IMG/VR virus record: IMGVR_UViG_2718218402_000006
Direction: 5' to 3' (one strand)
DNA length: 46,690 nucleotides
From: a virus
Taxonomy: Duplodnaviria; Heunggongvirae; Uroviricota; Caudoviricetes
Part shown: piece after piece, positions 42,001 through 46,690 of the stretch
Layout of the letters: each line of letters starts with the position of its first letter
Position numbering within the stretch: position 1 is the first letter of the stretch
Program-made: the position numbers

Positions 42001-45000
42001 GGTAAGTATGGCGGGGTTATTCCTTCCCCGTTGAGGACACCGGGTTGTCAGGTTGACCATACGCTTAAGCGACAACCCCGCTGCAACGCCCTCTGTTATC
42101 AATTTTCTGGTGACGTTTGGCGGTATCAGTTTTACTCCGTGACTGCTCTGCCGCCCTTTTTAAAGTGAATTTTGTGATGCGGTGAATGCGGCTCAGCGCA
42201 CGCGGAACAGTTAAAACCAAAAACAGTGTTATGGGTGGATTCTCTGTATCCGGCGTTAATTGTTAACTGGTTAACGTCACCTGGAGGCACCAGGCACCGC
42301 ATCACAAAATTCATTGTTGAGGACGCGATAATGGAAACGTTATTACCAAACGTTAATACGTCTGAAGGTTGTTTTGAAATTGGTGTCACTATCAGTAACC
42401 CTGTATTTACTGAAGATGCCATTAACAAGAGAAAACAAGAACGGGAGCTATTAAATAAAATATGCATTGTTTCAATGCTGGCTCGTTTACGTCTGATGCC
42501 AAAAGGATGTGCACAATGAATTCAGCATTTGCTGCTTGTTCTGACAGTTTTTCTTGTTTCCGGAGAGCCAGTTGATATTGCAGTCAGTGTTCACAGGACA
42601 ATGCAGGAGTGTATGACTGCAGCAACCGAACAGAAAATTCCCGGTAACTGTTACCCGGTCGATAAAGTTATTCACCAGGATAATATCGAAATCCCGGCAG
42701 GTCTTTAAAACAGTTCCGTAATAAATATCCGGTTTCATTCTTATATGCCAGCAATGGCAGGGATTTGTTCATCCTTAAATCTGTCATGAGGTTAAAACAA
42801 ATGAGTAAAGTCTTTATTTGCGCCGCTATTCCTGACGAACTGGCAACAAGGGAAGAAGGCGCTGTGGCTGTAGCCACAGCCATTGAAGCTGGCGACGAAC
42901 GCCGTGCTCGAGCAAAATTTCACTGGCAATTCCTGGAACATTATCCGGCTGCTCAGGACTGCGCTTATAAATTTATTGTCTGCGAGGATAAACCTGGCAT
43001 ACCCCGCCCTGCCCTCGATTCATGGGATGCTGAATATATGCAGGAAAACCGCTGGGATGAGGAGTCTGCTTCTTTTGTCCCGGTTGAGACTGAATCCGAT
43101 CCGATGAACGTCACTTTTGACAAGCTGGCCCCTGAAGTACAGAACGCTGTCATGGTTAAGTTCGACACATGTGAAAACATCACCGTTGATATGGTTATTA
43201 GCGCACAGGAATTGTTGCAGGAAGACATGGCAACATTCGACGGACATATCGTTGAAGCGTTGATGAAAATGCCAGAAGTTAACGCCATGTATCCGGAGCT
43301 TAAGCTGCATGCCATCGGGTGGGTTAAGCATAAATGTAAGCCTGGTGCCAAATGGCCCGAAATTCAGGCAGAGATGCGCATCTGGAAAAAACGTCGCGAA
43401 GGTGAACGCAAGGAAACCGGAAAATACACGTCTGTTGTTGATCTCGCCCGCGCCAGAGTCAATCAACAGCACACTGAAAATTCAACAGGAAAAATCAGCC
43501 AGGTCATTGCTGCCATTCATCGCGAATACAAGCAGACATGGAAAACACTGGATGACGAACTGGCCTACGCTCTCTGGCCTGGTGATGTGGATGCCGGAAA
43601 CATTGACGGCAGCATCCATCGCTGGGCAAAAAATGAAGTTATCGACAACTACCGCGAAGACTGGAAGCGTATCTCGGCATCAATGCGCAAACAGCCTGAT
43701 GCCCTTCGCTACGACCGCCAGACTATTTTTGGCCTTGTCCGTGAACGTCCGATCGACATTCACAAAGACCCTGTGGCACTGAACAAATACATTACTGAAT
43801 ACCTGACTACAAAGGGCGTGTTTGAAGATGAAGGAACAAATCAGAGCGCAACTGATACTCTCTCGTCGCCAGTACCAGAAACTGATGCAGTGGAAACGGC
43901 AATTCCGGACAACGAAAAAACCGAATGCAAAGTGGAAGTCGAACCATCTGTAGAGCGTGAGGGGCCGTTCTACTTCCTCTTCACCGACAAGGATAGCGAA
44001 AAATACGGTCGCGCAAACAAACTTTCTGGTCTGGAAAAAGCACTAGCCCTGGGAGCTACGGAAATCACAAAAGAGGAATACTTCGCACGTAAAAACGGCA
44101 CGTACTCAGGTTCACAACAAAATACTGGTGCATCTGACACGACCGCACAACCAGAGCCGGTAAAAGTTACCGCTGACGAAGTAAACAAAATTATGCAGGC
44201 AGCCAATATCAGCCAGCCTGACGCCGATAAGTTGCTTGCTGCCTCTCGCGGAGAATTTGTTGCAGGGATTAGCGACCCGAATGATCCGAAATGGGTTAAG
44301 GGGATCCAGACCCGCGATTCTGTAAACCAGAACCAGCATGAATCGGAACGGAACTACCAAAAAGCGGAACAAAACAGCCCAAATGCGTTACAAAACGAGC
44401 CAGAAACGAAACAGCCTGAACCAGTGGCGCAACAGGAAGTGGAAAAAGTCTGCACCGCCTGCGGTCAGACCGGCGGCGGCAACTGCCCTGATTGTGGCGC
44501 GGTGATGGGCGACGCAACATACCAGGAAACATTCGATGAAGAGTATCAGGTTGAAGTTCAGGAAGATGATCCGGAGAAAATGGAAGGCGCTGAACATCCA
44601 CACAAGGAGAACACTGGCGGCAATCAGCATCACAATAGCGATAATGAAACTGGCGAGACGGCAGATCACTCAATTAAGGTGAACGGTCATCAAGAAATCA
44701 CATCCACCAGCAGGACGTGTGACCATCTAATGATCGACCTTGAAACCATGGGAAAAAATCCTGATGCCCCGATCATCTCAATAGGTGCAATATTTTTCGA
44801 TCCGCAAACCGGAGATATGGGACCGGAATTTAGTAAGACTATCGATCTGGAAACTGCTGGCGGAGTCATTGATCGGGACACCATTAAATGGTGGCTTAAG
44901 CAATCACGCGAAGCGCAATCTGCCATTATGACCGATGAAATCCAGTTAGATGATGCACTGTTACAATTGCGGGAATTTATCGACGAAAACTCCGGTGAAT

Positions 45001-46690
45001 TTTTTGTTCAGGTCTGGGGAAATGGAGCCAACTTCGACAACACGATTTTGCGCCGTTCATACGAACGGCAGGGGATCCCCTGCCCGTGGCGTTACTACAA
45101 CGATCGCGATGTACGCACAATCGTTGAGCTGGGGAAAGCCATAGACTTCGATGCCAGAACGGCTATTCCATTCGAAGGTGAGCGCCATAATGCACTTGAT
45201 GACGCCCGTTACCAGGCAAAATACGTTTCAGCTATCTGGCAAAAACTGATTCCGAATCAGGCTGATTTTTAATGTTCAACCGTCGCCAGTTGTCGTTGGT
45301 ATTCTGCAACTGGCGCGTTCCGGAGTGATAGCCATGAGCGAACAGTACCTGATAACGCTCGATGAGTGGAAACCAAAACGGTTCAGTCTCCCAATAACAA
45401 ACACTACCCTGGTGAAATACGGAAAACTAGGATACATCGTTCCAAGACCACAAAAAATTCGTGGGCGTTGGCTGATAGATCGCCGGGCAGTATTTGTTGG
45501 ACCTGGTGAAACGGGAATTGCGCCGGAAATTCATACTGGCGATGATGATGCACTGAAGGAGATTTTAACTCATGTCACCGAGGCCACGAAAAAACAGCAC
45601 TGACGTAACCGGTCTTTACGAAAAGTTTGATCGCAGAACTGGCAGGGTTTACTACCAGTATAAAAACCCTGTGACTGGAAAATTTCACGGTCTCGGAACA
45701 GACAAAGGCAAAGCAGAAAAAATCGCTTCCACAGCCAATCAGCGAATAGCTGCAGCAGAAGCTGAATATTTCATGCGCAAAATTGATGAAAGTCCGTCAG
45801 CAACAAAACGTCGGGGTATCAGATTAAAGGCATGGGTTGATCGATATCTGAAAATACAGGACACGCGACTGAAAAATGGGGATATTGCAACTACAACTCA
45901 CAAAGAAAAAGCCCGAATGGCTGCATACCTGGTTTCCCGTCTGGGAAACCACCCATTGAAAGAACTGGAAGTAAGAGACTTTGCATTAATACTGGATGAG
46001 TGGCTGGATAAAGACATGGTCAGCACAGCGAGAGTAAATCGTGGATTATGGGTTGATATTTATAAAGAAGCACAGCATGCAGGGGAAGTTCCTCCTGGAT
46101 GGAATCCTCCGGAGGCTACCCGTAAACCGATCCCTAAAGTAACCAGAGCCAGGCTCACCCTGGAAGACTGGCAAAAAATTTACAACGCAACGCCTGAAAA
46201 ACACTTTATCCGTAACGCAATGCTTCTTGCGATTGTTACTGGTCAGCGCCGTGATGACATTTGCCACATGCGTTTTTCAGATGTGTGGAACGAACACCTG
46301 CATATCACCCAGGGAAAAACCGGAATGCGTCTGGCGTTACCGCTTACACTACGCTGTGATGCCATTGGGATAACGTTAAAAGAAGTTATTGATGGGTGCC
46401 GAGACAGAATATTAAGTCCATATCTAATCCATAGTCGGCACCAGAAACAACCGAAGCCGATGAGTAAAGACAACCTGAGCGACTACTTTGCCAAAGCACG
46501 GGATCTGGCTGGGATAATTCCACCAGCAGGAAAAACTCCGCCAACATTTCATGAACAACGCTCTCTATCAGAACGGCTGTACCGTGCACAGGGTATCGAT
46601 ACAAAAACATTACTAGGACATAAAGTCCAGGCAACCACCGATCGCTATAACGATACTCGAGGTCAGGAATGGGTTAAGTTGGTTATTTGA

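Follow-up and report, generated by a model that had tools for sequence, protein, structure and literature searches.

The stretch of DNA considered here, IMG/VR record IMGVR_UViG_2718218402_000006, is 46,690 nucleotides long, derives from a virus of the Caudoviricetes, and is referred to in its whole length as the window. At 42801..45272 on the plus strand it holds a gene for an 823-residue protein, a modular member of the RecE family in which the PD-(D/E)XK 5'-to-3' nuclease of RecE is replaced by a DEDDh domain of the type found in DexA of phage T4. As an object the gene is already known and annotated (RefSeq, PHROGs, Pfam) and is one of the commonest prophage genes of Escherichia coli; newer Pfam releases also define two families, PF27430 and PF27432, on its N-terminus. 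Literature searches on ydfE, on Rv2179c together with phage, on PF16473 and on DexA together with anti-defense returned no functional or experimental study of this protein. The gene and the parts of its product are arranged as follows.

42801..45272, plus strand: intact gene of 823 codons plus stop, matched end to end by PHROG 2082; names given by the Prokaryotic Genome Annotation Pipeline (PGAP) are "exonuclease" and "3'-5' exoribonuclease domain-containing protein"
42801..43460, plus strand: module N1 (residues 1-220), an alpha/beta subdomain (residues 1-100) and a helical subdomain (residues 110-205); the part that survives as YdfE of K-12
43533..43835, plus strand: helical module M (residues 245-345), shared with RecE ~278-345 (hhalign 99.9%); predicted local distance difference test score (pLDDT) ~96; ratio of nonsynonymous to synonymous substitution rates (dN/dS) 0.14
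43953..44114, plus strand: small beta-beta-alpha-beta-alpha module (residues 385-438); pLDDT 93-96, dN/dS 0.07
44220..44318, plus strand: conserved 33-residue peptide (residues 474-506) inside a disordered region, nearly identical in RecE; pLDDT 51-58
44451..44495, plus strand: zinc-ribbon-like motif CxxC-x7-CxxC (C551, C554, C562, C565), shared with RecE C517-C531
44496..44720, plus strand: acidic disordered linker (residues 566-640), with 18 D/E against 4 K/R; pLDDT about 30
44721..45269, plus strand: DEDDh 3'-5' exonuclease domain (residues 641-823) of the PF16473 / T4 DexA family; catalytic D646, E648, D746, H796 and D801

The sole Pfam domain in the protein is PF16473 (Rv2179c-like 3'-5' exoribonuclease), which covers residues 642-813 with 226.5 bits against a cut-off of 27 and spans profile positions 2-177 of 177. 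The exonuclease domain is CATALYTICALLY complete, with all five DEDDh residues present. When the window domain was aligned with the T4 dexA product and ten stand-alone homologues, D646, E648, D746, H796 and D801 fell opposite DexA D7, E9, D119, H186 and D191, the residues of the Exo I D-x-E, Exo II D and Exo III H-x4-D motifs; of these DexA positions, D7, D119, H186 and D191 are named as catalytic in the DexA structure paper (PMC12153337). The set is kept in eight of eight independent copies of the gene, and across 16 homologues four of its members are invariant and E648 nearly so (Lys in one). An AlphaFold model of residues 455-823 has a pLDDT of ~90 over residues 641-823 and gives an RNase H-like alpha/beta fold, for which a Foldseek search of the PDB returned 108 matches at E <= 1e-3. 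The top match is DexA (8KEL, E 2e-11), followed by RNase T, the DnaQ domain of Cas2-DnaQ, Cap18 and oligoribonucleases. When PDB sequences were searched by phmmer and by profile, 8KEL/8KEN was the sole relative found (profile E 7e-15); their Foldseek title identifies these entries as T4 DexA, as does tblastn, which matches them to phage T4 at 100%. The C-terminal domain is thus a DEDDh (DnaQ-like) exonuclease whose catalytic residues are all in place. The original prediction had placed a DnaQ-like exonuclease here and had named the lack of catalytic acidic residues on alignment as the sign that it was mistaken; Pfam, the DexA alignment and the fold search all bear the assignment out, and none of those residues is missing.

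The same prediction had described the preceding ~600 residues as an acidic, Gln/Glu/Asn-rich low-complexity region with a CxxC...CxxC ribbon. Acidic and Q/N-rich stretches are real, as in the linker of residues 566-640 and in residues 501-550, which hold 15 Q/N per 50 residues and are predicted to be disordered, but low complexity does not predominate: four confidently folded blocks and a conserved peptide are present, with purifying selection and homology to RecE. Modelled by AlphaFold from 34 sequences, residues 1-470 (mean pLDDT 83.9) show confident blocks at residues 1-205, 245-345 and 385-435 with disordered linkers between them. Residues 455-640 are mostly predicted to be disordered. This includes the zinc ribbon, which is present as foreseen at C551, C554, C562 and C565; its cysteines are invariant in the eight copies, and AlphaFold gives it a pLDDT of < 50 and no confident fold.

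By the Nei-Gojobori method, applied to eight full-length copies that are 86-99.8% identical and all lie in a dicB-ydfD-gene-xis-int layout, dN/dS is 0.07-0.14 in the folded blocks and 0.58-0.76 in the linkers, with residues 576-640 evolving almost neutrally (0.76). The exonuclease domain has a value of 0.12, so that constraint on the body equals that on the enzyme. Residues 471-545, which hold the conserved peptide, stand at 0.14, and this 33-residue DPNDPKW peptide is a candidate partner-binding motif. All eight copies are 2472 nucleotides long and lack an internal stop. The first ~625 residues accordingly hold folded modules under strong purifying selection and are not filler. Among the same copies the synonymous rate (dS) varies about ten-fold along the gene, from 0.05 at the zinc ribbon to 0.48 at residues 385-438, a variation that suggests mosaicism through intragenic recombination.

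Much of this N-terminal portion can be traced to RecE. Aligned by BLASTP with the RecE of Rac, the protein shares the RecE body (E 1e-62), with near-identity over residues 474-625, that is, the peptide, the zinc ribbon and the acidic tail; the RecE stretch opposite residues 385-438 is gap-filled and without similarity. The NCBIfam RecE equivalog NF007259 scores 279.7 bits against a cut-off of 1269, with model positions 271-602 matched on residues 246-625 only. Module N1 shows no BLAST similarity to RecE and no direct match to Pfam PF06630. In a profile comparison of 26 relatives with 14 RecE N-terminal domains, no protein being in both sets, hhalign nevertheless aligned N1 with the RecE N-domain (PF06630) at 96% probability (E 2e-9, 205 columns, about 10% identity). 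The probability was still 93% with the profiles cut to their first 180-190 residues, and the controls gave 0.5% (reversed sequence) and 4% (an unrelated RecE region). On this evidence the whole of residues 1-625 is read as a divergent form of the RecE non-catalytic body. The nuclease of RecE is what is lacking: neither a Pfam match to the PD-(D/E)XK domain (DUF3799) nor a BLAST match to RecE 600-866 was found in the window protein, although RecE itself matches DUF3799.

The family to which this body belongs is narrow, as an exhaustive HMMER scan of residues 1-640 against 1.84 billion representative proteins returned 246 clusters only; the named members that were looked up come from Escherichia, Kluyvera and Klebsiella. 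The C-termini of 48 long representatives were typed by segment mapping and Pfam scans, which reveal several kinds. A RecE-type or YdfE-type N-domain is joined to a DEDDh exonuclease in seven representatives, and the combination of PF06630 with PF16473 occurs in several lineages (P0126; P0140, from a metagenome; P0243, from Kluyvera). Given P0243 and P0140, the union of a RecE body with a DEDDh domain is no one-off. The same kinds of N-domain are joined to a PD-(D/E)XK nuclease in RecE, P0142 and nine others, with PF06630 and DUF3799 together in RecE and P0142. In a further 13 clusters the body carries a common C-terminal domain of ~320-460 residues that has no Pfam match and no detectable nuclease, as in the 778-residue WP_047062890.1 of Klebsiella aerogenes (P0127 class). 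The name "exodeoxyribonuclease VIII" borne by several proteins of this third type looks like over-annotation; the "RecE-2" proteins of PMC12315714, which lack a nuclease domain, are probably the same group. A DPxDPKW core is found in 20 of the 48 long relatives, alongside each of these C-terminal types, and the zinc ribbon in seven.

P0126 (L013 5001-7418) is a natural hybrid: it has 100% identity to Rac RecE over residues 1-270 and 98% identity to the window protein in its C-terminal exonuclease, with the junction within the shared DPNDPKW and zinc-ribbon region. Its gene belongs to a Rac-like operon (sieB, kilR, ydaE), and after it come genes for a DUF4224 protein and an integrase instead of recT. 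The conserved middle region thus appears to serve as a recombination joint between prophages.

The immediate neighbourhood of the gene comprises the following features.

42105..42156, plus strand: DicF small RNA (Rfam RF00039, 76.7 bits against a gathering score of 48), upstream of dicB in the same operon
42331..42519, plus strand: dicB, a 62-residue open reading frame (ORF) starting METLLPNV; the syntenic gene is named dicB in related loci
42516..42708, plus strand: ydfD (DUF1482 lysis protein), its frame shifted by a 1-nucleotide insertion at 42532
42788..42791, plus strand: Shine-Dalgarno-like GAGG, 9 nucleotides 5' of the ATG, read from the sequence
45325..45603, plus strand: excisionase gene xis (PHROG 629, E 5e-26)
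45572..46690, plus strand: integrase gene int, cut off by the end of the window; its syntenic counterpart in related loci bears an integrase annotation

The exonuclease gene is the distal gene of a dicF-dicB-ydfD (dicBF-type) operon, with xis and int immediately downstream of it. An 823-residue ORF between dicB/ydfD and xis had been proposed at the outset, and the ORF itself, the Rfam match to DicF and the PHROG match to xis confirm it. Its open frame (42765-45272, plus strand) begins at TTG; the ATG at 42801, which gives 823 residues, agrees with the PGAP start of a RefSeq copy that is 99.8% identical. The dicB-ydfD-gene-xis-int layout is repeated in seven other loci, the isolated phage HannyBb among them. 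The insertion in ydfD was judged against K-12-type and O157 copies; the frame is lost after codon 5 of the ATG-started gene, and what remains is a 59-codon ORF with a TTG start (42529-42708). In the genome that holds the 99.8% relative, ydfD is likewise flagged as a pseudogene. Upstream, just past a repressor-like gene (40172-40648), lies a strong sigma-70-like promoter match, TTGACA-17-TATAGT, at 40759-40787. A weak terminator-like hairpin at 42746-42759, in the gap between ydfD and the exonuclease gene, was dismissed, as such sites are no commoner there than in shuffles of the region. The nearest relative of the gene (99.8%, L003 22531-23784) is followed by a different excisionase (DUF4224) and another integrase, at a tRNA-Ser/mtfA site, which indicates that the integration module has been exchanged immediately downstream of the gene.

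In K-12 the gene survives as a stump. The match in a K-12-type genome (HB101) is limited to nucleotides 1-767, after which come an IS2 fragment and an intQ pseudogene, next to rspB; this copy is annotated as a pseudogene, "exonuclease, missing C-terminus". YdfE and the window protein are identical at 252 of 256 residues (98%), and dicB and ydfD lie upstream in both. At the same site, next to rspB, strain PSJ-22 has an intact gene of 823 codons, accompanied by xis and int. The ydfE of K-12 is an IS2-truncated remnant (codons 1-256) of this exonuclease gene, and the suggestion in the original prediction that ydfE is a fragment of which the window may hold the intact ancestral form is supported by the IS2 junction, the 98% identity and the intact copy of PSJ-22. 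Of 5426 complete E. coli genomes, 4799 (88%) carry the gene, at a median of two copies, and a match covering at least 80% of it is found in 3532 genomes. The cluster to which its product belongs at 90% identity has 23,183 members, which bear the names "exonuclease" or "3'-5' exoribonuclease". A collection of 15 billion proteins contains 99%-identical cluster mates but not the exact sequence.

Between the repressor-like gene and the exonuclease gene, the early-left ORFs match PHROGs of unknown function only and yielded no annealase, Gam or SSB, and neither recT nor another annealase stands beside the gene; xis follows it directly, both here and in eight related loci. The Chi sequence (GCTGGTGG), by comparison with an expectation of 2.2 sites, occurs 11 times in the window, a count reached in none of 100 shuffles.

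25200, 25785, 29904, 30106, 31620, 31672, 32078, 32136, 39473, 44704 and 46520 (span 25200-46527): Chi sites, 9 of the 11 on the minus strand

The minus-strand sense of Chi is that of the head-to-lysis genes. All of the sites lie in the regulatory, replication and lysis half, where they cluster toward the lysis and replication end, and one is inside the exonuclease gene. The prophage fits the lambdoid class with no Rec module and abundant Chi of PMC12315714, a study that also reports genes for DnaQ-type nucleases "very near int" in the early-left regions of lambdoid phages. The description of the locus as a recombination-gene position, made in the original prediction, holds for the place next to xis; it should not be taken to mean a function like that of RecET or Red, as there is no annealase and the predicted polarity is opposite to that of RecE.

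Two other observations concern this half of the window. At 32423-34275 (plus strand), two adjacent ORFs of 225 and 391 residues match transposase PHROGs (E 1e-111 and 3e-221) and are probably an insertion sequence inside the prophage; four of the Chi sites (31620-32143) lie just upstream of them. Rfam also reports a sok antitoxin RNA (103.9 bits) at 34847-34996 and the small RNA STnc100 (100.8 bits) at 29106-29278, both on the minus strand, and the former implies a toxin-antitoxin locus of the hok/sok type.

Together, these data are best accounted for by a protein in which a RecE-type body carries a DexA-type nuclease that trims 3' DNA ends in a phage dependent on RecBCD and Chi, an explanation to which a probability of roughly 0.55 is given. 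The DEDDh domain would remove nucleotides at free 3' ends by two-metal-ion hydrolysis, with D646, E648, D746 and D801 expected to hold the Mg2+ ions and H796 expected to act as the general base; DNA is the most likely substrate. Because the gene is the distal one of a repressor-controlled dicF-dicB-ydfD operon, expression is expected on induction or derepression of this early-left operon, and the product would not be made in the quiet lysogen. The RecE-type body may tether or target the nuclease by means of its folded domains and the conserved peptide. Given the Chi-rich sequence and the lack of annealase, Gam and SSB, the protein is unlikely to be one half of a two-component recombinase of the Red or RecET type. 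Its role would more likely be the trimming of 3' DNA ends in the DNA metabolism of a phage reliant on the host's RecBCD and on Chi.

Several points weigh against this explanation. As 3'-to-5' exonucleases usually inhibit homologous recombination (PMC12315714), a role in favour of recombination is not obvious. RNA may be the substrate in place of DNA, since Rv2179c, from which PF16473 takes its name, is an exoribonuclease, and the fold search places RNase T near the top. EcD, an E. coli homologue that has been characterised, takes part in defence against phages (PMC12153337). The proposed role in vivo draws on gene context only. The N-terminal homology to RecE is visible at the profile level only, and structure does not confirm it for the N-domain: the N-terminal model resembles no solved structure and gave no Foldseek match in BFVD at E <= 1e-3, and the N-terminal alignment profile found no match among PDB sequences.

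An extension of the explanation, tentative and doubtful as it is, would make the RecE-type body a general targeting platform that delivers interchangeable effector domains to one common partner. In such an arrangement the folded domains and the DPNDPKW peptide may dock onto a partner such as a complex of the host for DNA ends or replication (RecBCD, SSB or the clamp, for instance), and the effectors may be a 5'-to-3' PD-(D/E)XK domain, a 3'-to-5' DEDDh domain or the third domain, for which Pfam has no match. The joining of the body to varied C-termini, along with the conserved peptide, does suggest that the body is independent of the catalytic chemistry and probably binds a partner. In RecE itself, the non-catalytic part of ~600 residues boosts linear-linear recombineering, and a 2023 review refers to it as a domain of unknown function (PMC11611040). 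If the platform exists, its DEDDh form would, in Chi-rich lambdoid phages without annealase and Gam, adjust the recombination that depends on host RecBCD and Chi, or the protection of ends, through the trimming of 3' tails. The same body with nucleases of opposite polarity, and with a domain without a Pfam match, offers a comparative handle on what the non-catalytic body of RecE does. It likewise offers one on the DnaQ-type nucleases of lambdoid phages that have no recombination module and accumulate Chi, a question raised by PMC12315714. The most useful outcome is the reading of the architecture, as it makes the function of the body testable.

Among the alternatives to 3'-end trimming by a RecE-type/DexA-type protein, defence against phages of the HREX/EcD type is unlikely, but has the characterised homologue in its favour. 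The DexA-like domain would here selectively degrade the modified DNA of superinfecting T-even-type phages, for example DNA with 5-hydroxymethylcytosine (5hmC), and so protect the lysogen. The stand-alone E. coli homologue of DexA, EcD, digests the T4 genome and 5hmC DNA, leaves unmodified DNA alone, and protects against T4 even from leaky expression (PMC12153337). That the exonuclease domain is in the DexA family, with DexA as its best match, and that the gene is in 88% of complete E. coli genomes at a median of two copies, would suit such a role. EcD is a different protein, however, as its primers encode a MIDTET... start and a ...TIPETY end; when the primer 20-mers were compared with IMG/VR, one chance match was found, with no exonuclease gene there. 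The 5hmC-linked W152 of DexA is Y766 in the window protein (H in one copy), while D90, the tetramer-forming residue of DexA that PMC12153337 connects with the dimer state and that is Ala in EcD, is kept as D718 in both HMMER and MAFFT alignments. The region of DexA D169 aligns ambiguously, with the acidic D782 and D784 nearby. PADLOC gave no match. The operon is, moreover, expected to be repressed in the lysogen that would need protection, and the gene is kept at the same position in HannyBb, a free-living temperate phage.

A 3'-to-5' exonuclease acting on RNA in the manner of Rv2179c or RNase T, perhaps to process the DicF transcript or in host transcript decay after induction, ranks next and is improbable. 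In its favour, the Pfam family takes its name from Rv2179c, an exoribonuclease of Mycobacterium, the fold search strongly matched RNase T, oligoribonuclease and ERI1, and the DicF small RNA lies upstream on the same strand. The best match of both sequence and structure is nevertheless the DNA exonuclease DexA, and the exchange of this domain with the double-stranded DNA exonuclease of RecE on the same body points to a shared DNA-end context.

Of still lower standing is a nuclease of anti-defence or host takeover, which would destroy 3'-ended host nucleic acids, for example the single-stranded DNA made by a defence reverse transcriptase or, as with T4 DexA, host DNA scavenged for its nucleotides. 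The position of the gene would agree with early-lytic expression. No direct evidence for this reading was found, however, and the literature search for DexA together with anti-defence was empty; scavenging would be unusual in a temperate phage whose operon has no other genes for the degradation of host DNA.

That the protein is a true recombination exonuclease, functionally equivalent to RecE or lambda Exo, is very improbable. Its position by xis and int, its RecE-like body and the name "exodeoxyribonuclease VIII" given to relatives in some databases would suggest as much, but it has no PD-(D/E)XK domain, scores 280 bits against the equivalog cut-off of 1269, and has neither recT nor another annealase in its operon, here or in relatives. 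A DEDDh enzyme would also leave 5' tails, whereas annealases use 3' tails. Finally, the truncated stump in K-12 and the frameshifted ydfD next to the gene hardly make it a decaying, functionless prophage remnant, given that eight of eight copies are intact, dN/dS in the folded blocks is 0.07-0.14 and a match of at least 80% is found in 3532 genomes.

Of the known systems closest to it, the window protein shares with the RecE (exonuclease VIII) of Rac the body, residues 246-625 corresponding to RecE 271-602, and the placement of the gene near xis and int in the early-left region. RecE has a PD-(D/E)XK (DUF3799) nuclease and a downstream recT, whereas the window protein has a DEDDh domain, no recT and an extra small module at residues 385-438. 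YdfE of K-12 Qin differs in that everything from residue 257 on is gone, the exonuclease included. T4 DexA is of the same DEDDh family, aligns at all five catalytic residues and is the best match by profile and by fold; it is a stand-alone protein of 227 residues with extra loops and 27% identity, and has no N-terminal body of ~640 residues. EcD resembles the window protein as an E. coli-borne DexA homologue with intact catalytic residues, but conserves the 5hmC-recognition residues W152 and D169 (PMC12153337) and has no RecE body. Rv2179c of M. tuberculosis belongs to the PF16473 family as well, although it is described as an exoribonuclease and searches of the PDB gave only DexA. The stand-alone DnaQ-type exonucleases of lambdoid phages (~185-190 residues; Klebsiella, Salmonella and Enterobacter) are 57-62% identical to residues 641-823 and have the same catalytic residues, but are without the RecE-type body. 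Gene 34 of phage LLS, the type phage of the class with no Rec module and high Chi (PMC12315714), encodes one such stand-alone homologue, 58% identical to the exonuclease domain described here.

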